Shown: piece after piece, positions 1,687 through 64,000 of the stretch | Position numbering within the stretch: position 1 is the stretch's first letter | Layout of the letters: each line of letters starts with the position of its first letter | Source: Escherichia phage FL33 | Length of the DNA stretch: 64,000 nucleotides | Direction: 5' to 3' (one strand) | Sequence record: PP400788 | The notes under the pieces: model-generated | Databases searched by the model: none | What the model was told of the DNA's origin: nothing | What the model saw: the letters and a program-made list of their open reading frames with translations, nothing else | Made by a program: the position numbers and the translations under genes

Positions 1687-2019
1687 TTATTTTACTACTT
1701 TCCAGTGCTGCATGTCAAGTTTGCCAACTTTTTTCATCTTCTCAATTAAGCGTTCGGCACGTTGGCGAGCTGTAACATAATACCATTCACCTAATTCATT
1801 TTGTTCAATTTTTCCAACGATTACTGTATTCAACTCATAAATCCAACCGGTAAAGAAATTATGAACTTGAATTGTAAAGGTGAAATCTGTTCCCATACCT
1901 TCTGTTGTTTCTACTTCAATAATATCACCTTCAACTGCCATTAAGAACCACATAGTTTCATCATATTTACCATTGAAGCATTTAGTTTTAACTGTAGCGT
2001 TCAGATTAATCGTTTTCAT
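1687..2019 (-). CDS. hypothetical early protein
   Basis: 110-aa ORF in co-directional array. Confidence 0.55.
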   Translation of the reverse strand: MKTINLNATVKTKCFNGKYDETMWFLMAVEGDIIEVETTEGMGTDFTFTIQVHNFFTGWIYELNTVIVGKIEQNELGEWYYVTARQRAERLIEKMKKVGKLDMQHWKVVK

Positions 2020-2046
2020 TTTATTCTCCTTTGTTTGTGTAAGATA

Positions 2047-2076
2047 ATACTATCACAAAGGAACTATACTGTAAAC
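2047..2076 (-). promoter_or_regulatory. T4-type early (sigma70) promoter
   Basis: Minus strand GTTTAC -35 and TAGTAT -10 separated by 18 nt, A/T-rich upstream. Confidence 0.55.
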
Positions 2077-2098
2077 AACTTTGTGCAATCTTTGGAAA

Positions 2099-2126
2099 AT
2101 AAAAAAGGACTCCCGAAGGAGTCCTT
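2099..2126 (-). terminator. intrinsic terminator
   Basis: Minus strand GGACUCC-UUCG-GGAGUCC followed by UUUUUU. Confidence 0.65.
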
Positions 2127-2129
2127 AAC

Positions 2130-2306
2130 TTATGCTTTCTGCTTACCAAAACGAGAAGCATCATCTCGAAGAACCGCACGTGCTCGGCGCATGATCTTCT
2201 CAACAGTTTGATTGATACGAGAGTTCGACCCACGCTTGTAACCAGCGCGTTTAGAATCACCAACTTTCTTTTCAACTGCTTTCTTTGCTTTAGCTTGTTT
2301 TGCCAT
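2130..2306 (-). CDS. small basic protein (hypothetical)
   Basis: Lys/Arg-rich ORF; ATG at 2306 (MAKQAKAKK...) preferred over upstream in-frame start; followed by hairpin terminator 2099-2126. Confidence 0.45.
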   Translation of the reverse strand: MAKQAKAKKAVEKKVGDSKRAGYKRGSNSRINQTVEKIMRRARAVLRDDASRFGKQKA

Positions 2307-2593
2307 TATAAATTCTCTTTTAAATGAAAATGCAGGACTTATTGGCATTGCCTGCGCAAGCCCTCAAGGGGAACATAGGTTTTGAATATTTACCGACAGG
2401 ATAACCATAAACCTCGTCAACATACCACCAAGACTTACACAGATAACACTTTTCTGACGCATGATAGTAACATTCAAGAGGTACACCATAAAACTGCCGG
2501 GGTCTTAAAACTATAATGATTCGCAAATCATTAATCAGACAGTTCGATGGCTCCTCGATTTAGCTCACACTAAGGCAGTGAATCTCCAATAAA

Positions 2594-2842
2594 TTACTTC
2601 AGTGTTACCACAAAGTGACGAACTGCTTTTCGTGCAGCAGAAGCCAAAGGCTTAGCATATTTAAGTTCATCTTTTTCCTGAAGCTCAGCAGCTAATGCAG
2701 TTTGAGCAGGATTCAGATGTTTGAAATAACGCAGGATTTCAAGAGCTTCGGCTTCAACATCAATAGATGCGCCATAGTTTTCGTGACCATTATTCCATGC
2801 GTTTCGTTGCAGTTCAAGAGCGTGTTGTAATTGTTTAATCAT
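2594..2842 (-). CDS. rIII: rIII lysis-inhibition accessory protein
   Basis: 82-aa ORF MIKQLQHALELQRNAWNNGHENYG... matches remembered T4 RIII; position downstream of gene 31. Confidence 0.85.
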   Translation of the reverse strand: MIKQLQHALELQRNAWNNGHENYGASIDVEAEALEILRYFKHLNPAQTALAAELQEKDELKYAKPLASAARKAVRHFVVTLK

Positions 2843-2981
2843 TTAAAAATTCTCGTTAGAGATTAAAACTCGGTAGTCACGTTCTTCTGAATTTCATCTT
2901 CTTTCGACAGATCTCTCAGTTGTAGACTACCACGTAGAATTGTTCGGTTAACTTATTATTCCGACACCCAATTCATATTAT

Positions 2982-2989
2982 TATTTATA
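2982..2989 (-). promoter_or_regulatory. possible late promoter TATAAATA upstream of rIII
   Basis: Exact TATAAATA on minus strand, immediately 3' of gene 31 stop. Confidence 0.35.
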
Positions 2990-3325
2990 TCACTTATAAA
3001 GACATGGAATAGCTTTATAATGACATGTTACGAATTTTTGTTTAATTTCTTTTGGCTGCTTAAGACCCAGAGCTACAAAAGGATGCGGAACATTTCGAAT
3101 TTGACCAACTGGAAGAGAAGTCAAATCACCAACTTCGCAGAAACCTTCAGGAACATCAGGACCAACAGAGTGAACTACACACAGTTCAGGAACTTCACCT
3201 TGAACACGTTTACCGATAATGAGTCCTGATTCTGTAACTTCTTCATCACCAGCTTGCGCAGGTTCAGAAACTAAAATAACAAATTCACCGACAGCACGAA
3301 TTGGTAGCTGTTGTACTTCAGACAT
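2990..3325 (-). CDS. 31: gp31 GroES-like co-chaperonin for capsid protein folding
   Basis: 111-aa [17 protein letters not shown]...[11 protein letters not shown] matches T4 gp31 length and sequence as remembered. Confidence 0.9.
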
Positions 3326-3381
3326 TGTTTTTCCTTTTTGTTAACAGATGAATTAATAATAACAAATAATTCTTAAAGCAT

Positions 3382-3690
3382 TTATTTACCAATAAATTGA
3401 AGCAAATGCTCAACTTTCATACCATTAACGGAAATCAATTTGTCAATAGAAAAACCTCGCCATGCACCAAGCTCAACATCAAATACTGGAATCATATCAG
3501 TAGATTCTTTCCGAGTAAATTCAGTCAATTTACCGGTTTGCATGGTTGGCATAAAGTCAGCATCGCGTGTGCCTTTCATAGTACGAATAGTACCGTCAGA
3601 CTTTTCAAAAACTACATTTGAAATACCCATGGACAATTTAGTTTTCAAAATTTCACGAATTGCTACTTTCTGTTCAGTCGTCAGTTTCAT
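3382..3690 (-). CDS. hypothetical protein (positional equivalent of T4 31.1)
   Basis: 102-aa ORF between cd and 31. Confidence 0.6.
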   Translation of the reverse strand: MKLTTEQKVAIREILKTKLSMGISNVVFEKSDGTIRTMKGTRDADFMPTMQTGKLTEFTRKESTDMIPVFDVELGAWRGFSIDKLISVNGMKVEHLLQFIGK

Positions 3691-3927
3691 TTATTTACCT
3701 ATCACAGTTTTAATATGAGTTGTTCCACGTTCTTTAAGAGTGGAAAGCAATTTTTGGCATTTTTCTAAATCAGATTTCCAACTATACGGTCTATCAATAC
3801 AAACCCAGTTTGACTTATAATACTGCTTCCATTTAGAGAAAAAATATTTCTTATACTCTACAGCAAATGAAATGTTCTCGTTGGAATAAGAACTAATTGC
3901 TGTGAGTTGTACCAAACGAAATTTCAT
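3691..3927 (-). CDS. hypothetical protein (positional equivalent of T4 31.2)
   Basis: 78-aa ORF; start overlaps cd stop. Confidence 0.55.
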   Translation of the reverse strand: MKFRLVQLTAISSYSNENISFAVEYKKYFFSKWKQYYKSNWVCIDRPYSWKSDLEKCQKLLSTLKERGTTHIKTVIGK

Positions 3928-4508
3928 TATTCACCACAGAATTCGTTGATATTTTCCCAGTTTAACTTATTCAAGTTTTTCTTAGGAACATTAAACACTT
4001 CAATACCTGCATTTCGCAGAATATCATCCCAGCCAGATTTATTTTTATCGTATGTTTCGCAATAAACCAGCTTTTTAATACCAGATTGAGCTATCGCTTT
4101 TGCACAATCTGGGCAAGGAGAAAGTGTTACATACATAGTAGCACCTTCAATTGAAGAACCGTTTCGTGCAGCAAACAAAATCGCATTTAGTTCAGCATGA
4201 ATTTCATTTTTAGACGACCATTCAGAGTGAGCACTGCGGTGTTCTTTCGCCAAGACAAAACGATCAGTTGAACCAAATGATACGCATTCAGGCTTATGAC
4301 CTTGAATGATAGTATGTTTAGGCTTATTCAGCAACCAACCTTGCTCAGCAGCATAATCACAGCAATTCACACCACCTGCAGGCGAACCATTATACCCAGT
4401 AGAAATAATACGTCCATTCTTTTCAATTACTGCTCCTACCTTCCAGGAGCAACATTTTGATTCTTGTGATACTAAATATGCAATTTGAAGTACTGTACTC
4501 GCTTTCAT
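3927..4508 (-). CDS. cd: dCMP deaminase
   Basis: 193-aa ORF with cytidine/dCMP deaminase zinc motifs (HAELNA ... SPCPDCAKAI); T4 Cd is 193 aa. Confidence 0.9.
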   Translation of the reverse strand: MKASTVLQIAYLVSQESKCCSWKVGAVIEKNGRIISTGYNGSPAGGVNCCDYAAEQGWLLNKPKHTIIQGHKPECVSFGSTDRFVLAKEHRSAHSEWSSKNEIHAELNAILFAARNGSSIEGATMYVTLSPCPDCAKAIAQSGIKKLVYCETYDKNKSGWDDILRNAGIEVFNVPKKNLNKLNWENINEFCGE

Positions 4509-56111: not shown

Positions 56112-56630
56112 TTAATAACCTCGGTCTTGACGAGCGAAGTTTTCAGCATTTTTCAGATAATAAAGTTTAAAGATTTCTTCTGCTGTAAGACCAAGACCTT
56201 GGAACATGTTCAGAACGAAATGGAGAATATCAATCATTTCAAATTTAATTTCCAATTGGTCTTGTGGAGACAAATCAGTAATCAGAGTTTCACGGCGTTC
56301 ACCATGCTGAGCTTTCCACGGCTTCCATACAGCAGATGCATCTTTTTCGCCATTGCTCATACCACCAAGAGAAGTCAGAAGTTCGCGGAATTCATCATCA
56401 ATATAATCTTTCTGATTACGCAGCCAATCAACAACTTCACCTGCAGTAGCCAAATCATCAGGATGACGGTTATATTCAGGTTTATCTTTAGCTAAACGAA
56501 TCTGCAGAGATTTCTGCATGTCAAGCATTACCTGCAGCGGGTCTTTTTCATCACCGAGAATATCCCAATATTCATTTTGAGCTTTATCAGCGCCTTCAAT
56601 CAGTTGTGAACATTCGTTAAAGTAAGCCAT
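56112..56630 (-). CDS. 56: dCTPase/dUTPase (dCTP pyrophosphatase)
   Basis: 172 aa from ATG 56630 with SD AAGGA (ORF-track upstream extension begins at a GTG); MAYFNECSQLIEGADKAQNEYWDILGDEK... Confidence 0.85.
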   Translation of the reverse strand: MAYFNECSQLIEGADKAQNEYWDILGDEKDPLQVMLDMQKSLQIRLAKDKPEYNRHPDDLATAGEVVDWLRNQKDYIDDEFRELLTSLGGMSNGEKDASAVWKPWKAQHGERRETLITDLSPQDQLEIKFEMIDILHFVLNMFQGLGLTAEEIFKLYYLKNAENFARQDRGY

Positions 56631-56701
56631 TATTTTTCCTTTCAATTCATGGGTTAGTAGATTAATTATACAATAAATATATAAAGCAATAAGGAGGACA
56701 T

Positions 56702-56902
56702 ATGGTACAAAAATTAATGGCACTTGTTAATGCCATCAAAGGTAATAAAAAACGTATAGCTTTTACTATTTCTGCTATGATAGGAATTTTACTTTGGAAT
56801 TTTGTTTTATCACCAGTTGCTATTGCTCATGGCGTTAGTATTCCAGTAATTACTCTTGATACATTCGTGGATTTAGCATTTGCTTTAGTTGGGTTAATTT
56901 AA
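56702..56902 (+). CDS. small membrane protein, divergently oriented (hypothetical)
   Basis: 66-aa plus-strand ORF with two hydrophobic helices and very strong SD (AAGGAGGACAT-ATG); only plus-strand ORF in this early-gene block. Confidence 0.5.
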   Translation: MVQKLMALVNAIKGNKKRIAFTISAMIGILLWNFVLSPVAIAHGVSIPVITLDTFVDLAFALVGLI

Positions 56903-57927
56903 ATCTTAGCATATTTAGATAGCCGCATTTTAGCCATCAACCCTTGGGCAATATTATTTTTCATATATTCCATAATTTGTTCAGGGGTTGCACCTTCCTT
57001 TCTAATCATATCATTGACGTCTTTTGATTTCCAGGGAGATTTATCCCAAAACATAACCCTTTCTCCTGCATCAACTAATTTAGTCATTCGTTTGATAGTG
57101 TCAGGGTGACGAGGTTCATTATCTAAAACCCACACTCGTCTATCTTTAAATGGAACAATTTCTAGGTCTAATTGACCGCCTGTAATAGCTATACCATTTT
57201 CAATAAAAAGCGAATCTATAGGTCCTTCTAGAACATATACATCGCCATCTTTAACCCGTTCGACACCGTAAATTTTTGTTGCCTCAGGATAAGCTTTGAT
57301 GGTAATATACTTTTGTGGAGCATCTTTCTTTAATGCACGCCCTTGAAACGACTCGGCTTTTCCATTAGCATTATAAATTGGAATAACAAGACGAGGCTCA
57401 GGTATTTCCTTTTTATATGTTCCCGGTGCTATGCTATTAACTAATTTAGGCCATTCAGTTGTAAACCAAAGATATTTCCATTTATCCTTTGGAATACAAC
57501 GAGCTTTTACGTATTTTATAATTGGATGGTCTTCCGCCAGTTTATCTAATCTAATGCATGACGGAAGAGATTTAATTATTTTCTTCTCAGGTTGTTTAGG
57601 AAGTTCTTTAGGTTTTTCTACTGGACGACTTTTACCTTTTTCTTTTCTTATTTCAAAGATATACTCACGATATAAATCAGGTTCAAACTCCTTTAAATAT
57701 ATTCCGATTGGTGCATGATAGTTACAGTTATAACAATGAATATTTCCTTCATTATTATCGCCATAATACCATCCACGAGCTTTATTCTGGTCGGTTTTTG
57801 AATCTCCACAAACAGGGCATCTAAACCGCAATTTAAAAGTTGAACTATTATTTACTTGTGTGAATTTAGGTAAATGAGCTAATGCACGGTATGCAAACTC
57901 ATTATCAATCCAAGGTATTGATGACAT
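56899..57927 (-). CDS. 61: gp61 DNA primase
   Basis: 342-aa ORF with N-terminal zinc ribbon (CPVCGDS...HCYNCNYH) and TOPRIM core; T4 gp61 is 342 aa. Confidence 0.92.
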   Translation of the reverse strand: MSSIPWIDNEFAYRALAHLPKFTQVNNSSTFKLRFRCPVCGDSKTDQNKARGWYYGDNNEGNIHCYNCNYHAPIGIYLKEFEPDLYREYIFEIRKEKGKSRPVEKPKELPKQPEKKIIKSLPSCIRLDKLAEDHPIIKYVKARCIPKDKWKYLWFTTEWPKLVNSIAPGTYKKEIPEPRLVIPIYNANGKAESFQGRALKKDAPQKYITIKAYPEATKIYGVERVKDGDVYVLEGPIDSLFIENGIAITGGQLDLEIVPFKDRRVWVLDNEPRHPDTIKRMTKLVDAGERVMFWDKSPWKSKDVNDMIRKEGATPEQIMEYMKNNIAQGLMAKMRLSKYAKI

Positions 57928-57929
57928 TT

Positions 57930-58094
57930 TTACTCTTCTTTTTCTTTAGATTCCTCTTTTTTCTTTTTAGGAATCTGTTCAGGACCTTTATTTACTACAG
58001 CGCCTGATGTTGTTCCAGTAGAGATATTTTCAGGATTACCACCTGAATCTCCAGCGACCATATCTTCTTTGATAAATTCTTTATATGTTTTCAT
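57930..58094 (-). CDS. small Lys/Glu-rich protein (positional equivalent of T4 61.1; sub-threshold ORF)
   Basis: 54-aa ORF MKTYKEFIKEDMVAGDSGGNPENI...; ATG overlaps upstream stop. Confidence 0.5.
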   Translation of the reverse strand: MKTYKEFIKEDMVAGDSGGNPENISTGTTSGAVVNKGPEQIPKKKKEESKEKEE

Positions 58095-58095
58095 A

Positions 58096-58722
58096 TTAAC
58101 CTCTATTCATAAAAGCATTAAAAATTTGGTCATCAATAGAAACATTTACTTTAGACTGTTTTTCAGATGGCAATTCATATCCACATATTACAATTTTATG
58201 ATCAATATCAAAATACACAGAAGCAATATGATTAATGATATTTTCAGTGAAGTCTAAATCAACATCAATGTCTTTTTGACCAAAACCCAAAGGATAAATA
58301 ATGCGAGTAATTCGATTATCTTTAACAAAGATTCCACCGACATACTCTGTGCTGCGTTTAAAGTCTACACGCCGACGAAATGAAAAATATTCAGGCTCTT
58401 TATGAGCTCGGCTCATAGGGCACAACGAATAACTAGAATAAGAGATGTCAAATCCTACGCCTTCAATATGAACTAAATTGTCATGATTAAACCAATTATA
58501 ATCATATGCCAAGTCCATTAGATTGTCATATGTGAAAGGCACCGGATTAACATCATTGGTCACAAGCATATAATTAGCAACTGCTATAATTTCATTATTT
58601 TTAACGAAAACAAACCGTGATTGATGCGAATGACCTGGACCTGTGTTTTCACGATTAATGATATAACACTGGGCACCTTTATATTTGTACGTGTCTTTAC
58701 ACTTGTGCATTTGATAAAGCAT
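58096..58722 (-). CDS. hypothetical protein (positional equivalent of T4 61.2)
   Basis: 208-aa ORF. Confidence 0.6.
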   Translation of the reverse strand: MLYQMHKCKDTYKYKGAQCYIINRENTGPGHSHQSRFVFVKNNEIIAVANYMLVTNDVNPVPFTYDNLMDLAYDYNWFNHDNLVHIEGVGFDISYSSYSLCPMSRAHKEPEYFSFRRRVDFKRSTEYVGGIFVKDNRITRIIYPLGFGQKDIDVDLDFTENIINHIASVYFDIDHKIVICGYELPSEKQSKVNVSIDDQIFNAFMNRG

Positions 58723-59015
58723 TATTCACCTACCACTTCAGCGATGATATTTTTATTATTAAAGTTTTTATCGCAATACAGAACATAATTATACTGCATT
58801 ACACCGCCAGACTTAAGTTGTTTTTGAACTTCGGCTTTCATTTCAGGACGATCACGCTCAACGATATTCATAATATCTGCTTCAATTTGAGTTTCAACCT
58901 CAGTCTGATCTGCAGTCATAGACCATTCGCACAAATCTTTATCATAACCTGCCATAGCAGGCTGAGCAGCACAAGAAGCTAAAGCAAAAATTGTGGCAAA
59001 GATAAATTTTTTCAT
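58722..59015 (-). CDS. sp: Spackle periplasmic protein (superinfection exclusion/lysozyme inhibitor)
   Basis: 97-aa ORF with cleavable signal peptide MKKFIFATIFALASCAAQPAMA; T4 Sp (61.3) is 97 aa. Confidence 0.75.
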   Translation of the reverse strand: MKKFIFATIFALASCAAQPAMAGYDKDLCEWSMTADQTEVETQIEADIMNIVERDRPEMKAEVQKQLKSGGVMQYNYVLYCDKNFNNKNIIAEVVGE

Positions 59016-59075
59016 GATAATCTCCTCAGTAGTTTATGTTTATATAGTATCTCAATTTTCAACAAAAGTAAACAG

Positions 59076-59333
59076 TTATTTTAAAACTTCTGCGTAATCA
59101 CATGTTACAAACTGTTTCTCTAACTTGACGATTTTACGAAAGTATCTTTTGCATTGGCGAATCTGCCGCTTCGTAGGGCGAACAGCAAACTTAATAAATT
59201 CCACTCGACCAAATGGAGGACTTTCTTCTGCTGGAATATCTAACACCAATTCCCACGTATCTGCAATAAGTGCTTTGAATTGCGTATTTTTCCTGACGTT
59301 ATACGGAGTGGGTTTAAATAAAACAATATGCAT
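59076..59333 (-). CDS. hypothetical protein (positional equivalent of T4 61.4)
   Basis: 85-aa ORF. Confidence 0.55.
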   Translation of the reverse strand: MHIVLFKPTPYNVRKNTQFKALIADTWELVLDIPAEESPPFGRVEFIKFAVRPTKRQIRQCKRYFRKIVKLEKQFVTCDYAEVLK

Positions 59334-59334
59334 A

Positions 59335-59517
59335 TTATCCTCGGCAATCTACTTCACATACTTTCTTGTCATCAATGAAAGCTTTAACTAATGCTTTATT
59401 AACTTCAGCATATTGAGTAGTAGCCCATTGAACGTCATCTTTCATCATTGTGATTTCTTTAGTAAACATGCTTTCATTCTTAAACCACCCCATAAAAACT
59501 ACCTTTACCAATTCCAT
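59335..59517 (-). CDS. dmd: Dmd antitoxin (inhibitor of host RnlA/LsoA toxins)
   Basis: 60-aa ORF MELVKVVFMGWFKNESMFTKEITMMKDDVQW... at the 61.5 position just downstream of gene 41; T4 Dmd is 60 aa. Confidence 0.7.
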   Translation of the reverse strand: MELVKVVFMGWFKNESMFTKEITMMKDDVQWATTQYAEVNKALVKAFIDDKKVCEVDCRG

Positions 59518-59546
59518 AACAATCTCCTCATTTAACCAACAAGACT

Positions 59547-59576
59547 ACTATACCATAGTCTTGTCAGCTTGTAAAC
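59547..59576 (-). promoter_or_regulatory. T4-type early promoter upstream of dmd
   Basis: GTTTACA ... TGnTATAGT on minus strand overlapping the 3' end of gene 41. Confidence 0.55.
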
Positions 59577-61003
59577 TAAAATTTTAATTCATTTGCCAAA
59601 GCATCTAACTGGGCTCGAGTGGATTCATTTCTTTGATAGCGATTCTGTTCAGCCTGAATCTGTTGTGAACCTGCTACTTCGTTCACTTCAGTTGGAGTAG
59701 AATCTTGTTCAATTTCTACCCATTTCTGATTTCCTTTTTGAACACCCATCAAAAACTTATTCCATTTATTCTTATCACCATATCGTGATTTGATTTGCTT
59801 AATGAGTTGTTGTTCAGCAGCTGCCAACTCCTCGGTTTCAATGACCGCAAGCATAAAATCAGCTGTTGCTGGAAGACCAGCAGATTCTGCAATATCGCTC
59901 ATGTTAACATCAGAAGAATCCCAAGCTTGTTTGCCGACCTGTGCTGCAGTCCAAAGAACAGTTTCGGTTTCAACAGCCAGAGCACGCAATTCCTCTGCAA
60001 TAGCTTTAACAGTTGTGTAACTATTTTCTGAATAAACTCTAATGCGGCAAGATTTACAAATACCCAGATAGTCTACAATAATGATTGTTGGAACAAAATT
60101 CTTCTTGAGCTTCAATTCATTCAAGAGAGACCTGAATGTGTTAGCATCTGCCCCACCAGTAGGATACTGTTTAACGATTAAACGGCCGAGAGTAGATTTC
60201 TCACGCCATTTTTCCATTTTTCCTTTATATTCAGCGTAAGAAATATGCCCATCATCAATGTCATCAAGAGAAACATCGAGCATATTAGCGTCAATACGTT
60301 TAGCACAGACTTCTTCTGCCATTTCCATGGAAATGTAAAGAACATTATGTCCGAGCTGTAAATAATCTGCTGCTAATGAACACAATCCTAATGACTTACC
60401 AACGTTAACGCCAGCCATTAAAACGTTCAGTGTTCCAGTCTCAGCTCCGCCTTTAGTAATTTTGTTTAGAATTCTGAGTTTAAATGGAACCTTACGAGCT
60501 TTATTCATATAAGATAGCCAACGTGCTTCGTAGTCATCCATCCAATCATGACCAACGTAGCTATCAAATGAAATTGATAATGCTTGACGCATAATGTCAG
60601 GAATAGCACCAACATCCGGCATTTTTTTATTTCGTTTTTCCGGAGGAAGCTCAGCATTAGTTTGAATTTCGATTATTTTAGACGTAGCATTAAACATCGC
60701 CCTTTGCTGAACATATTTTTCTGTTTCTTTTACTAACCAACTGTGGTCTTCTGGAGAATCGGCTAGTTTTGAAATAAGTGTTTTTACACCAGAATATTCT
60801 GTTTCAGTAAATGAACTATTTTCTAATGCAACATTTAACGCATTAATAGATGGAACGCTATGGTACTCATTAACATGAGATTTAATTAATTTGAATGTAT
60901 TTTTAGCTGGACCACTTTCAAAATATTCTGAATCCATATATGGCCAAACTTTTGAAAAATAAGCTTGATCAAATATGAGATGAGAAAGAATAATTTCTAC
61001 CAC
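59576..61003 (-). CDS. 41: gp41 replicative DNA helicase (DnaB-like)
   Basis: 475-aa ORF with Walker A GVNVGKS and DnaB-family motifs; T4 gp41 is 475 aa. Confidence 0.92.
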   Translation of the reverse strand: MVEIILSHLIFDQAYFSKVWPYMDSEYFESGPAKNTFKLIKSHVNEYHSVPSINALNVALENSSFTETEYSGVKTLISKLADSPEDHSWLVKETEKYVQQRAMFNATSKIIEIQTNAELPPEKRNKKMPDVGAIPDIMRQALSISFDSYVGHDWMDDYEARWLSYMNKARKVPFKLRILNKITKGGAETGTLNVLMAGVNVGKSLGLCSLAADYLQLGHNVLYISMEMAEEVCAKRIDANMLDVSLDDIDDGHISYAEYKGKMEKWREKSTLGRLIVKQYPTGGADANTFRSLLNELKLKKNFVPTIIIVDYLGICKSCRIRVYSENSYTTVKAIAEELRALAVETETVLWTAAQVGKQAWDSSDVNMSDIAESAGLPATADFMLAVIETEELAAAEQQLIKQIKSRYGDKNKWNKFLMGVQKGNQKWVEIEQDSTPTEVNEVAGSQQIQAEQNRYQRNESTRAQLDALANELKF

Positions 61004-61012
61004 ACTTACTCC

Positions 61013-61369
61013 TTAAAAGAATTTAAATTTTTTCTTTGACCTTTTATTAAATGCATCTTGTAGTTGCATTGTAATACATTTTTCTACATGAGGAGCTAAC
61101 TCAGCTTTTCTTTCTTGGTCAAGAACAGCAAAGTCCATTACGACTTTTCCATCAACCCAATCTAATTTTGTCACATACACAATGTGTGTAGAACCATCTT
61201 CTAGTTTAATGATAATCTCCTGGATAACATTTTCCATGGCAGATTTAATTATCTTAAGAGATTCATTAAAAAGACGTTCTTTTCTTTCTTCTTCCCCCTC
61301 CGAAGAGGGGGATTCGTCGATAATTTCTAAATCTAAATCATCTTTATTCATTAAATTCTTCCATATCAC
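61013..61369 (-). CDS. 40: gp40 head vertex assembly chaperone
   Basis: 118-aa ORF between uvsX and 41 as in T4. Confidence 0.7.
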   Translation of the reverse strand: MIWKNLMNKDDLDLEIIDESPSSEGEEERKERLFNESLKIIKSAMENVIQEIIIKLEDGSTHIVYVTKLDWVDGKVVMDFAVLDQERKAELAPHVEKCITMQLQDAFNKRSKKKFKFF

Positions 61370-62525
61370 TTAACTGATCTAGGTCAGTTTCTAAATCAGC
61401 TGCTGATTTACTTTTACTTTCTGGAGATTTAAATTTTTCAACCTTTGAGTTAATTAATTCATCAACTTCGGCTTCAACAATTTCATTACTATCAATAGCA
61501 CCTAATTGATAAGCACGTTTAATAGCATCTCGGAATGGTTGATGCTTAAATAAAGGACCCCAGAATGTAGTGCAGTTGGTATCTTTTGCACGCCAAGATT
61601 TTTCTTCGCGAATCATCTCGCCTGTTTCTTCGTCAAGAAATTCACGAGCATACCAGCCATTTTTAGGTTTTACTACAAATCCTAATTCAAGAGCCATATC
61701 TAACAATCCAGAATAAGGATCGATACCACCGTCAAATTTAACATCAATAAAGAATTTACTTTTTTCTTTAACGGTACGAGATTTTTCTACATTTAGAACA
61801 AATTGATACCCCTGAAGATCAGAACCATCTTTAATCTGGCGCTTACCGATAATGAATACAGTATCAGCCGAATACATTACGCCTGTACCACCTGTCATCA
61901 CGGTTTTACTAAACATTTCAATTGTTTCAATTGTATGGTTAACCGCAACGCATGGAATATTTTTAATACTAAAATAAGGAGTAACAATACGGAATAATGA
62001 CTTCAGCGATTTAGCACGAGTCATATCTGCCACAGATTTTTCATTCAAGGCATCTTCCGTTTCTTTCTTAGAAGCCATATTACCGATTGAGTCGATGAAT
62101 ACAATAACCTTTTCACCACGCTCAATAGCTTCAAGCTGATTCACCATATCAATTTTCAGTTGTTCAACTGACTGAATTGGTGTATGAATTACTCGTTCCG
62201 GGTCAACTCCCATGGATCGCAAATAAGCTGGAGTGATACCAAATTCGCTATCATAAAATAGACAAACTGCATCAGGATATTTGTTCAAATACGCCGCAAC
62301 CATAGTCAAAGACATATTTGATTTAAAGTGTTTAGAAGGACCTGCAAAAATGGTTAAACCAGACTGCATACCACCATCAATCGCACCGGAAATAGCAATA
62401 TTAAGCATTGGGATTTTTGTACGGATTACATCCTTTTCATTAAAGAATTTAGATGTAGTCAGTTCAGCAGTCATTTTAGAAGTGGAAGCTTTAATCAAAC
62501 GGGATTTTAAATCTGCAATAGACAT
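61344..62525 (-). CDS. uvsX: UvsX RecA-like recombinase
   Basis: 393-aa ORF with RecA-fold Walker A (GPSKHFKS) and acidic C-terminus; T4 UvsX is 391 aa. Confidence 0.92.
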   Translation of the reverse strand: MSIADLKSRLIKASTSKMTAELTTSKFFNEKDVIRTKIPMLNIAISGAIDGGMQSGLTIFAGPSKHFKSNMSLTMVAAYLNKYPDAVCLFYDSEFGITPAYLRSMGVDPERVIHTPIQSVEQLKIDMVNQLEAIERGEKVIVFIDSIGNMASKKETEDALNEKSVADMTRAKSLKSLFRIVTPYFSIKNIPCVAVNHTIETIEMFSKTVMTGGTGVMYSADTVFIIGKRQIKDGSDLQGYQFVLNVEKSRTVKEKSKFFIDVKFDGGIDPYSGLLDMALELGFVVKPKNGWYAREFLDEETGEMIREEKSWRAKDTNCTTFWGPLFKHQPFRDAIKRAYQLGAIDSNEIVEAEVDELINSKVEKFKSPESKSKSAADLETDLDQLSDMEEFNE

Positions 62526-62602
62526 TCATTTTTTCCATAGGCATCATTATATTTTCCTCACCGGTTAAAGATAGAGTAATTATAACACAATAAATTTAGG
62601 CA

Positions 62603-63445
62603 TTAATCAACTACTATTGGATGAATAGCATTAAACTTATGAAACGCTTCTGATTTTTCTTTGCGCGAAACACACATGCGAAGAACCTTTAATGGCTCAT
62701 CTTCTTCACCCAACGATTTTCTCTTTTCAATATTCGATGTTTTCCAACGAGCTTGCTCTGGAAATTCTCTATTGATTTGCTCAAGCGCTCTATTATGTTT
62801 AGAATTGCTACGAATTGAACTACATCCACCGGGGGCTTGTGCTTTTCCGGATACAACCAGATATTTGAACAAGGCCAAATGCGGATAACCTTGATTAATT
62901 AAATTGAGAAATGCATACATATCTTCGCATAAATCAATTTTTCCATACCCAATTTGTTCTGTTGTAAGTTTTCCAAGGTCATACCATGTATTCGTGAATC
63001 CATATGAATTTTCACGATAATTACCCCAAGATGAAGTAATTTTAAAAATAGGTAGACGAGCATGGCCATGATAATACCCGCAATCCATGGCATCTTCAAC
63101 GTATTGAATCAATTCATAGAACTGTTCACGAGTTAATTGATTAATTTTATCTACGCAGCGACGATCATCTTTCTTTCGCATTGAACTCATACGAATAGTA
63201 GTATCATCATCGATCATCCAAATTCGTTGACCTGCATACATATCAGTAATTGCTTTACGAGTACCGGCAATTCCATTAACATCATCAGGAATAGCTATAA
63301 TTTTAGCTCTAGACCCATAAGCATCATAATAAGCTTTTTCTTCGTGTTCACGCACTACAATATGGGGTTCATAATCAGTCGGAAACATATTAAGGGCAGA
63401 AACTGCCCCGACACGCTGATAACTTGGAATTACGAATTGAATCAT
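62603..63445 (-). CDS. GT-A type glycosyltransferase, probably HMC-DNA beta-glucosyl-alpha-glucosyl-transferase (T2/T6-type) at the T4 beta-gt locus
   Basis: 280-aa ORF with DxD motif (IWMIDDDTT); unrelated to remembered T4 beta-gt (351 aa); locus upstream of uvsX. Confidence 0.5.
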   Translation of the reverse strand: MIQFVIPSYQRVGAVSALNMFPTDYEPHIVVREHEEKAYYDAYGSRAKIIAIPDDVNGIAGTRKAITDMYAGQRIWMIDDDTTIRMSSMRKKDDRRCVDKINQLTREQFYELIQYVEDAMDCGYYHGHARLPIFKITSSWGNYRENSYGFTNTWYDLGKLTTEQIGYGKIDLCEDMYAFLNLINQGYPHLALFKYLVVSGKAQAPGGCSSIRSNSKHNRALEQINREFPEQARWKTSNIEKRKSLGEEDEPLKVLRMCVSRKEKSEAFHKFNAIHPIVVD

Positions 63446-64000
63446 TTAAGTGCCTTACATTTGTCAAAATGGTATCTTGTCATATTTGGCCCACGTCCTT
63501 TTAGTCCGCAATGCGGACATATTTTTTCTATCAAATTATGAGGTTTTCCTTTACGATTTTTAGACATCGTTTCTTTAATTATTTTAGCTTTTTCTGCGCC
63601 AAAAATTTCTTCATAAGTTTTACCAGAATTTTCCTTTGCTCGATTTATAATTCCATATGCCTGCTCATTTTTACCATACATTGGATTACCTTCGCCTTTC
63701 ATTCTTTTAGAATGGTCAGGACGCTTAATTCCACGAAAGGCATTTCCACATTTATATCTTTCTTCTGGAGATAGTTTCTTACCGTACATTCCATTTAATT
63801 TGCCCGGAAAACTTCCTCCCCATGCTTCATTCTTTAAATTATATGAATCTGGACAATTAGCAGCATCTAAACAAGTTAAAATAATTTCTTCAACCTGTCT
63901 AAACATTGGTCCTTCATATAATATTTCTTTATTAAAGGATTTTATTCCATATTTCTTTTTAGCATGTTGCCAAACTACACCCGAACCATCATAATTCAGG
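63442..64000 (-). CDS. Seg-like homing endonuclease (GIY-YIG/NUMOD3 family), N-terminus beyond window edge
   Basis: ORF open to the window edge; repeated NUMOD3-like motifs (GKKLSPEERYK, GEGNPMYGK, GKTYEEIFGAEKAKIIKETMSKNRKGK), C-terminal CPHCG zinc-finger-like element. Confidence 0.55.
   Translation of the reverse strand, partial: LNYDGSGVVWQHAKKKYGIKSFNKEILYEGPMFRQVEEIILTCLDAANCPDSYNLKNEAWGGSFPGKLNGMYGKKLSPEERYKCGNAFRGIKRPDHSKRMKGEGNPMYGKNEQAYGIINRAKENSGKTYEEIFGAEKAKIIKETMSKNRKGKPHNLIEKICPHCGLKGRGPNMTRYHFDKCKALK

Follow-up and report, generated by a model that had tools for sequence, protein, structure and literature searches.

The free-standing homing endonucleases of phage T4 cut DNA hundreds of bp away from their own genes and co-convert the intervening sequence (PMC2988022). 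SegA, SegC and SegE are listed as active endonucleases in Table 1 of the T4 review (PMC2988022), and segA, whose product cuts uvsX (PMC2988022), stands in the T4 order 42, beta-gt, segA, uvsX. The intron-encoded enzyme I-TevI binds at the intron insertion site and nicks upstream of where it binds, within the sequence CAACG (PMC5009752). In this study, we analysed a stretch of 64,000 nucleotides (nt) of Escherichia phage FL33 (PP400788), referred to below as the window, whose end carries seg, a gene for a predicted Seg-type GIY-YIG homing endonuclease located between gene 42 and the glucosyltransferase gene beta-alpha-gt. Gene 42 encodes dCMP hydroxymethylase, a member of the thymidylate synthase (TS) family. 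We propose that seg probably homes into gene 42, its nuclease activity, expression and homing being predicted from sequence comparisons.

With regard to the T4 Seg enzymes, the seg protein appears to share their catalytic domain, in which YxGSG replaces the Arg27 helix of I-TevI, and its gene is likewise intergenic, co-oriented and overlapping with its neighbours, sporadic, and a few hundred bp from a presumed target in a conserved essential gene (PMC2988022). In a multiple alignment, seg was 26% identical to SegE, 29% to SegC and 31% to SegA, while local alignments gave 36% over the N-terminal 132 amino acids (aa) with SegC (tblastn) and 31% over 167 aa with SegA (BLASTP). In contrast, the insertion site of seg at the junction of gene 42 and the glucosyltransferase gene, as well as its presumed target, are unlike those of any T4 Seg, and SegA, SegC and SegE lack the C-terminal CCHC finger which seg possesses. 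A preliminary description of the window had pointed to T2 and to T4 segA for comparison. The likeness to T2 stood, as in that phage, too, a homologue of the glucosyltransferase is encoded between gene 42 and uvsX; the likeness to segA did not, as segA is located on the opposite side of the glucosyltransferase gene and shares only the 31% identity mentioned above, which rules seg out as its equivalent. Database records name seg hypothetical, 'homing endonuclease', 'putative endonuclease segE' or 'SegD'. The last label (GenBank LR746311.1) is supported by none of the comparisons made, in which SegC was the best T4 match by tblastn and SegD itself was not included. Our literature search retrieved no description of an endonuclease at this junction, which is weak evidence given that most subscription journals were outside the search.

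The seg protein is also comparable to I-TevI in its predicted catalytic fold and NUMOD3-type linker elements. The host gene of I-TevI, like that of I-BmoI, belongs to the TS superfamily, and the gene 42 segment predicted as the target of seg is the homologue of the td stretch that separates the cleavage and intron sites of I-TevI (PMC5009752). In contrast, I-TevI is intron-encoded and possesses both the Arg27 helix and a helix-turn-helix domain, whereas seg is free-standing and lacks both. The zinc finger of I-TevI is located in the linker, whereas that of seg is C-terminal and of the CCHC type, and the I-TevI gene lies within 25 bp of its target, compared with about 200 bp for seg and its presumed target. 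These features do not place seg closer to I-TevI than to other Seg proteins. Finally, as in homing endonuclease gene islands (Barth et al. 2023, PMC10448857), seg is found at the boundary between a divergent tract, the 3' end of gene 42, and conserved sequence. The glucosyltransferase gene can be bracketed by two endonuclease sites, those of seg and segA, although no genome seen carries both genes.

The seg gene and its predicted product

Positions 56400-64000 of the window are base-for-base identical to Escherichia phage FL34 (PP400789.1), a Tequatrovirus isolated from pig faeces, as determined by direct string comparison; megablast also gave 100% identity for positions 62400-64000. The part of seg located beyond the window was therefore read from the identical FL34 record. 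The full gene encodes 213 aa (window-equivalent 63442..64083), with 185 codons inside the window and the first 28 beyond it, and the protein begins with MEVNAPHVYKYKHPKTKKWYIGSHDGHNLNYDGSG. The seg gene shares its first 10 nt with the end of gene 42 and its last 4 nt with the glucosyltransferase gene. Both this open reading frame (ORF) and that of the glucosyltransferase have hundreds of database homologues, with E-values down to 1e-140 or lower, and thus neither is a chance ORF.

A search of a large protein collection retrieved 69 relatives of seg with 28-98% identity. Y9, Y20, G22, Y31, G33-S34-G35, G46, E65, N82 and G89 are invariant or at least 90% conserved in this family, and the four CCHC residues C189, C192, H205 and C209, found within the C-terminal element CPHC...HFDKC, are each conserved to at least 90%. 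The first motif, VYK, which lies outside the window and was read in the FL34 record, contains Y9 (at least 90% conserved), which aligns with Y6 of I-TevI. The second motif, Y20-I-G22, is invariant in the family alignments and aligns with Y17-V-G19, while E65 and N82 align with the catalytic residues E75 and N90. The profile of the family matched the catalytic domain of I-TevI (1LN0, E=8e-5; 1MK0, E=8e-4), which a phmmer search of PDB sequences with the single protein did not reach, giving nothing meaningful. The seg protein matched phrog_314 'homing endonuclease' at E=5.6e-31. Other models remained below threshold: TIGR01453 'group I intron endonuclease' gave 24.5 bits for a cutoff of 56 and NUMOD3 (PF07460) gave 17.9 bits for a gathering cutoff of 20.4, and the FL34 protein alone matched neither PF19835 (SegE_GIY-YIG) nor PF01541 (GIY-YIG) at E up to 1. 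Among 30 relatives, however, NUMOD3 was matched by 22 at E up to 0.01 (best E=4.5e-10), PF19835 by 11 and PF01541 by seven.

The structure was modelled on a protein 98% identical to that of FL34 (P0001). The AlphaFold model has a mean predicted local distance difference test (pLDDT) score of 87.3, exceeding 90 over residues 11-80, which represent most of the N-terminal domain. It exhibits a beta-beta-alpha-beta-alpha core, with strands at residues 7-12, 19-24 and 51-57 and helices at residues 36-45 and 61-72. The best PDB matches obtained with Foldseek were I-TevI structures 1MK0 and 1LN0 (probability 1.0, target template modelling score 0.63-0.64, root-mean-square deviation 2.8-3.0 Å), followed by the GIY-YIG restriction enzyme PD-T4-3. 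The C-terminal 28 residues (186-212 in the model) are predicted to form a beta-beta-alpha unit containing the CCHC residues, which weakly resembles the Rad18 UBZ finger.

The preliminary description, which had only the truncated ORF at hand, regarded it as a GIY-YIG Seg endonuclease with NUMOD3-like repeats and a C-terminal zinc-finger-like element. Both elements can be read in the translation, and the recovered N-terminus contains the expected nuclease motifs (VYK...YIG, YxGSG, E65 and N82). Together with the phrog_314 and I-TevI matches and the modelled fold, this identifies seg as a predicted free-standing Seg-type GIY-YIG homing endonuclease, comprising a catalytic domain (residues ~1-90), a NUMOD3-rich linker and a CCHC finger.

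Population counts were obtained from GenBank phage records; a scan of IMG/VR with the glucosyltransferase gave only five loci. In tblastn searches, 77 phage records matched seg at 95% aa identity or more, and a 1601-nt query spanning uvsX, the glucosyltransferase gene and seg was covered to at least 80% in exactly 77 records. Given these matching counts, every close copy of seg is arranged as seg, beta-alpha-gt, uvsX. The reverse does not hold, as about 84% of the phages with this glucosyltransferase are without seg (77 of ~472 records carry it). In the seg-less phages T2, RB32, HY01, fFiEco06 and PYps35T, the stop codon of gene 42 directly overlaps the start of the glucosyltransferase gene, and alignment of FL34 with T2 revealed a clean 632-bp presence/absence difference between these two genes. 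The seg gene is thus intergenic, inside neither an intron nor an intein, and sporadic among close relatives.

Gene 42 as the conserved partner and presumed target

Relatives of seg with 57-71% identity were found in the Jiaodavirus Klebsiella phages ValerieMcCarty03, KPN6 and Roth77, in Yersinia phage MHG19 and in five IMG/VR contigs (L012-L016). Wherever the flanks could be read (all but MHG19), a gene 42 homologue is located directly upstream. The downstream gene is beta-alpha-gt in Jiaodavirus, a dCMP deaminase gene in L012 and, in L013-L016, a small ORF that precedes an unrelated one of 338-346 aa. Seven metagenomic relatives with 43-61% identity are all situated immediately 3' of a gene matching Thymidylat_synt (PF00303), and the genes downstream of them encode a helicase, a dCMP deaminase and a family A DNA polymerase, an NTP-transferase, an IMPDH-like protein and others; a glucosyltransferase of the T4 beta-gt family (PF09198) follows the relative in contig L113. 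The remote partial relative P0064 (33% identity) showed no TS-family neighbour. Given that the upstream gene is invariant whereas the downstream genes vary, the conserved partner of the seg lineage is a TS-family gene (gene 42), not a glucosyltransferase gene.

Some of these contigs have further features. In L113 and L114 (Logan SRR13892588 and SRR13892587; positions 1697-4293), the seg relative, 61% identical, stands between a TS-family gene and the PF09198 gene, the latter is followed by a CofD-family gene, and a second TS-family gene is located about 1.3 kb upstream. In L012 (IMG/VR 3300020044_003503; positions 1002-2644), the dCMP deaminase gene and a 404-aa ORF after the seg relative may be part of a different base-modification pathway. 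Additional NUMOD3-containing ORFs were found within 2 kb of seg relatives in L103 (4743-5390) and L107 (757-1680), and these regions are therefore dense in endonuclease-like genes.

The alignment of gene 42 comprised 15 Tequatrovirus loci, namely four bearing seg, phage CE1, and ten without seg, including T2 and T4. All four seg-bearing loci and CE1 exhibit three dense patches of substitutions, at which all ten seg-less alleles are T2-like; the intervening sequences hardly differ. In patch A (nt 502-528 of gene 42), 17 of 27 positions are changed, converting MRSNDVVFGF into MRSNDCWAGY. Patch B corresponds to nt 594-606, and patch C, in which YSRHF becomes YENQF, to nt 651-663. The last ~40 nt of the gene are also divergent in the four seg-bearing loci, whereas they are T2-like in CE1. 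In a search of phage records database-wide, the 3'-terminal 252 nt of FL34 gene 42 gave a bimodal distribution, with 86 records at 90% identity or more versus 417 at 80-90%. A 91-nt query centred on patch A was matched at 90% or more by about 90 records, compared with the 77 bearing seg, and about 13 records keep the recoded patch without seg.

Jiaodavirus is an independent replicate of this seg-linked divergence. In that genus, seg-bearing and seg-less phages are near-identical up to about nt 498 of gene 42 and differ over the rest of the gene by 14-19 mismatches per 60 nt, with VVFGY replaced by CWAGY at the boundary. The outer boundary of the divergence coincides in the two genera (codons 168-176). 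On the glucosyltransferase side, no seg-linked divergence was observed in either genus, the differences being limited to a background of 0-6 per 60 nt over both genera and 0-5 in Jiaodavirus. Arg168 and Ser169, at the boundary, are retained with a switch of codon family, from CGC TCA to AGA AGC in Tequatrovirus and, for the serine, from TCT to AGT in Jiaodavirus. Such a switch is the largest nucleotide change without a change in the protein, and it is expected from selection to escape a sequence-specific nuclease.

With regard to active-site motifs of dCMP hydroxymethylase, the change from VVFGF to CWAGY (codons 172-176; L001 7888-7902) is located just before R177-N178-D179, and the change from SRH to ENQ (codons 218-220; L001 7756-7764) follows HVY; both stretches are located past the end of the window. 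D179 determines the specificity for cytosine.

The position of patch A corresponds to a site already known in td. Exon 1 of T4 td ends with CAA CGC TCA GTA GAT GTT TTC TTG GGT, followed by the intron, and encodes YQRSVDVFLG|LPFN, the CAACG sequence representing its Q-R codons. BLASTP aligned M167-R-S-N-D-V-V-F-G175 of gp42 with Q175-R-S-V-D-V-F-L-G183 of the T4 td TS, and the patch A segment as a whole aligns with Q175-L184. In view of this alignment and of the location of CAACG, patch A corresponds, codon for codon, to the td stretch that runs from the I-TevI cleavage site to the point of intron insertion.

The following course of events may be envisaged. Since no promoter motif of its own was found, seg would be expressed from gene 42 transcripts. 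In a mixed infection, the enzyme would cut the VVFG-type allele of gene 42 in seg-less relatives, most probably at or near the segment encoding M167-RSNDVVFGF176 (5'-ATGCGCTCAAATGACGTGGTCTTCGGATTC in T2), which is ~205-235 bp from the seg start codon. Double-strand-break repair from the seg-bearing genome would then copy seg along with the recoded 3' end of gene 42, which is presumably resistant to cleavage; this would be intronless homing as for SegF and SegG. While homing into gene 42 is the probable part of this proposal, the assignment of the exact target to codons 167-176 is a prediction which we hold to be evenly balanced.

Escherichia phage vB_EcoM_CE1 (ON229909.1; L092 2020-4269) has the three gene 42 patches and no seg. 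It also has a segA gene, 98% identical to that of T4, between beta-alpha-gt and uvsX, and therefore the endonuclease sites flanking the glucosyltransferase gene assort independently of glucosyltransferase type. CE1 looks like the resistant, endonuclease-free stage of a homing cycle.

A broader reading falls just short of what we would call probable. In this reading, seg would represent a widespread and unnamed Seg lineage specialised on TS-superfamily genes, whose target would be the active-site-coding segment from R168-S169-D171 to G175, the homologue of the td/thyA site of I-TevI and I-BmoI. Intron-borne and free-standing GIY-YIG enzymes would then have settled on one and the same piece of the TS fold. 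In T-even phages, the lineage would drive the replacement of the 3' end of gene 42 (VVFGF to CWAGY, beside D179) and, with segA on the other flank, would bracket the glucosyltransferase gene with endonuclease sites.

Alternative explanations

Several observations weigh against homing of an active enzyme at patch A. The seg-linked TS-family genes of more remote relatives (L105-L107) are without the xW(A/S)GY motif. The three patches are too far apart for one recognition site and could share one mosaic ancestor, and the boundary of patch A may be an old recombination end-point rather than a target. In the protein, the helix-1 segment containing R27 of I-TevI is absent, leaving a 10-residue gap in the profile alignment, and the shorter YxGSG is found instead. 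Neither a T4 late (TATAAATA) nor a middle (MotA-box) motif was found from gene 42 to uvsX. Finally, seg is frameshifted in Shinka (L091 ~3310), where A7 instead of A6 leads to the loss of the CCHC finger, and in Klebsiella phage Roth77 (L005 2383-2993), where it aligns in two frames. These frameshifted copies show decay in parts of the population, although each of the two disruptions could be either decay or a homopolymer sequencing error.

In the case of the R27 segment, T4 SegA, SegC and SegE exhibit the same deletion, with DGY[LM]GSG in its place. As these three enzymes share the replacement and are listed as active, we consider the missing segment a signature of the Seg subtype rather than a defect. 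Sigma-70-like sites were no commoner than in shuffled sequences (7 versus 7.7), and no dedicated seg promoter can be proposed.

The spacing of the patches would fit an active homing enzyme whose target is not patch A, but for example the HVY-SRH codons of patch C or a site near the junction of gene 42 and the glucosyltransferase gene, the patches being remnants of an imported gene 42 tract. The divergence of the whole 3' tract in Jiaodavirus and the deviating motif in the remote TS genes agree with this explanation. Nevertheless, it is unlikely, given that the outer boundary coincides in two genera, that the Arg/Ser codon-family switching observed there is rare under ordinary drift, and that patch A occupies the position homologous to the I-TevI site.

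The preliminary description had instead suggested an exchange of modification-gene cassettes, in which seg would mobilise the glucosyltransferase gene and swap beta-alpha-gt for beta-gt between T-even phages. In each of the 77 Tequatrovirus records with seg, beta-alpha-gt stands beside it, the only arrangement seen there, and in T4 another Seg, SegA, is encoded on the opposite flank of the glucosyltransferase gene. As CE1 joins beta-alpha-gt with segA, this gene is bracketed by two endonuclease insertion sites, and entry into a T4-type genome would need repair reaching uvsX, replacing both beta-gt and segA. The suggestion was not upheld, however, since gene 42 is the constant partner, the divergence is located in the 3' end of gene 42 and in neither genus in the glucosyltransferase gene, and most phages with beta-alpha-gt are without seg. 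Moreover, seg relatives keep gene 42 upstream, while the genes downstream are unrelated and include the beta-gt-family gene of L113, which implies that there is no obligate link between seg and beta-alpha-gt, and no phage was seen in which seg stands beside a recently transferred glucosyltransferase gene. As the normal mode of seg, such a cassette was rejected on the divergence profiles and the synteny, which argue against it, and we consider it quite unlikely that seg mobilises the glucosyltransferase at all.

The weakest alternative, that the seg protein is no longer a homing enzyme but a remnant in decay or a domesticated factor, acting in DNA binding or competition to the benefit of the phage, could draw on the missing Arg27 segment, the failure of the single protein to reach the Pfam GIY-YIG and SegE models, the frameshifts in Shinka and Roth77, the alignment of the PYps5T copy in two pieces and the ~13 records with a recoded patch and no seg, but it is very unlikely, because Y9, Y20, G22, E65, N82 and the CCHC residues are conserved to at least 90% in relatives that are 30-98% identical, active T4 Seg enzymes have the same motif variant, and an active homing cycle would be expected to leave just such a sporadic occurrence together with a recoded target linked to the gene.

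Glucosyltransferase, locus layout and significance

The features of the locus are listed in Table 1. The preliminary description had placed the glucosyltransferase ORF next to uvsX, with a second ORF overlapping its start and running off the window, and the coordinates confirm this arrangement.

Table 1. Coordinates of seg, the glucosyltransferase gene and associated features in the window
Feature	Position	Strand	Basis
uvsX	61344..62525	-	right-hand conserved flank of the glucosyltransferase locus; annotated recombination protein / uvsX in FL34 and vB_SsoM_113
beta-glucosyl-HMC-alpha-glucosyltransferase gene, T2/T6 type, 280 aa (HMC, hydroxymethylcytosine)	62603..63445	-	phrog_842, Pfam TAGT, T2 identity
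DDD (DxD-type) motif, glucosyltransferase residues 79-81	63203..63211	-	direct reading of translation
ATGA overlap of seg TGA stop and glucosyltransferase ATG start	63442..63445	-	context CTTAAATGATTCAAT
seg, predicted Seg-type GIY-YIG homing endonuclease gene, residues 29-213 and stop	63442..64000	-	FL34 ORF, phrog_314, I-TevI profile
Predicted C-terminal CCHC zinc-finger-like module (C189, C192, H205, C209)	63445..63528	-	conservation, model
Predicted linker / DNA-binding region with NUMOD3-like repeats, residues 95-180	63544..63801	-	Pfam NUMOD3 E=0.003, below cutoff
NPMYGK repeat, residue 133	63670-63687	-	by eye in translation
NGMYGK repeat, residue 97	63778-63795	-	by eye in translation
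Predicted GIY-YIG catalytic domain, C-terminal two thirds, residues 29-90 (YDGSG, E65, N82, G89)	63814..64000	-	family alignments, AlphaFold and fold match

The glucosyltransferase matched Pfam TAGT (PF20691) over its full length with 40.3 bits (cutoff 27.5) and phrog_842 'beta-glucosyl-HMC-alpha-glucosyltransferase' at E=1.8e-88, and it is 97.5% identical to the T2 protein, which has the same length. No sequence similarity to T4 beta-gt (PF09198; 351 aa) was detected, the best BLASTP hit having E=3.4 and tblastn giving no match in the T4 locus, and a phmmer search of PDB sequences gave nothing meaningful. The earlier view that this DxD-motif protein, unlike the T4 enzyme, is of the T2/T6 type was therefore correct, and the profile searches led to no unrelated family. 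In tblastn searches, ~472 phage records, T2 among them, matched the protein at 90% identity or more, and ~200 records of Klebsiella, Enterobacter and Salmonella phages did so at 60-80% identity. The T2/T6-type enzyme adds a second glucose, beta-1,6-linked, to alpha-glucosyl-HMC, which is produced by alpha-gt, a gene also encoded in the FL34 genome. The transferase activity of the T2 and T6 enzymes is known (PMC2993671), and the FL33 protein would, judging from its identity to the T2 protein, catalyse the same beta-1,6 transfer. With this identity to T2, the same length and locus between gene 42 and uvsX, an alpha-gt partner, and no difference of note, the 280-aa ORF is an ordinary T2/T6-type beta-alpha-gt, an already-known gene that adds nothing new.

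In FL34 and in Shigella phage vB_SsoM_113, the genes are arranged in the order 43, imm.1, imm, 42.1, 42, the 213-aa ORF, the 280-aa ORF, uvsX, 40, 41; in the window, gene 40 (61013-61369) and gene 41 (59576-61003) are both on the minus strand. The small ORF 42.1 (L001 8423-8572), between imm and gene 42, is annotated in FL34, T2, RB32 and vB_SsoM_113, whereas T4, Shinka, CE1 and HY01 have an unannotated gap of ~150 nt in its place (L004, L091, L092 and L095 compared). Two GC-rich, hairpin-like palindromes were also observed. One, GTCCGCAATGCGGAC (window 63504-63518, plus strand), lies inside the CPHCG codons of the zinc finger, and the other, GGGGCAGTTTCTGCCCT (window 63393-63409, minus strand), is located 36 nt into the glucosyltransferase gene and is also present in T2. 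Three terminator-like sites were found in the scanned region, compared with 0.9 expected from shuffles.

The interest of this locus resides in the specialisation of seg on gene 42 and the TS family and in the parallel with the I-TevI site, both of which are predictions. The seg gene is an addition to the T-even homing-endonuclease model system, with a predicted target in an essential gene for a DNA-modification precursor. Natural alleles of gene 42, presumably resistant and sensitive, are available in two genera, together with natural intermediates such as CE1 and the frameshifted copies. If the predicted site is true, seg would represent a second, independent GIY-YIG solution for the segment coding for the TS-fold active site that is used by I-TevI and I-BmoI, which would bear on target switching by GIY-YIG enzymes and on their application as engineered nuclease domains. 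A local mosaic of gene 42 among therapeutic and environmental Tequatrovirus isolates would be explained as well.

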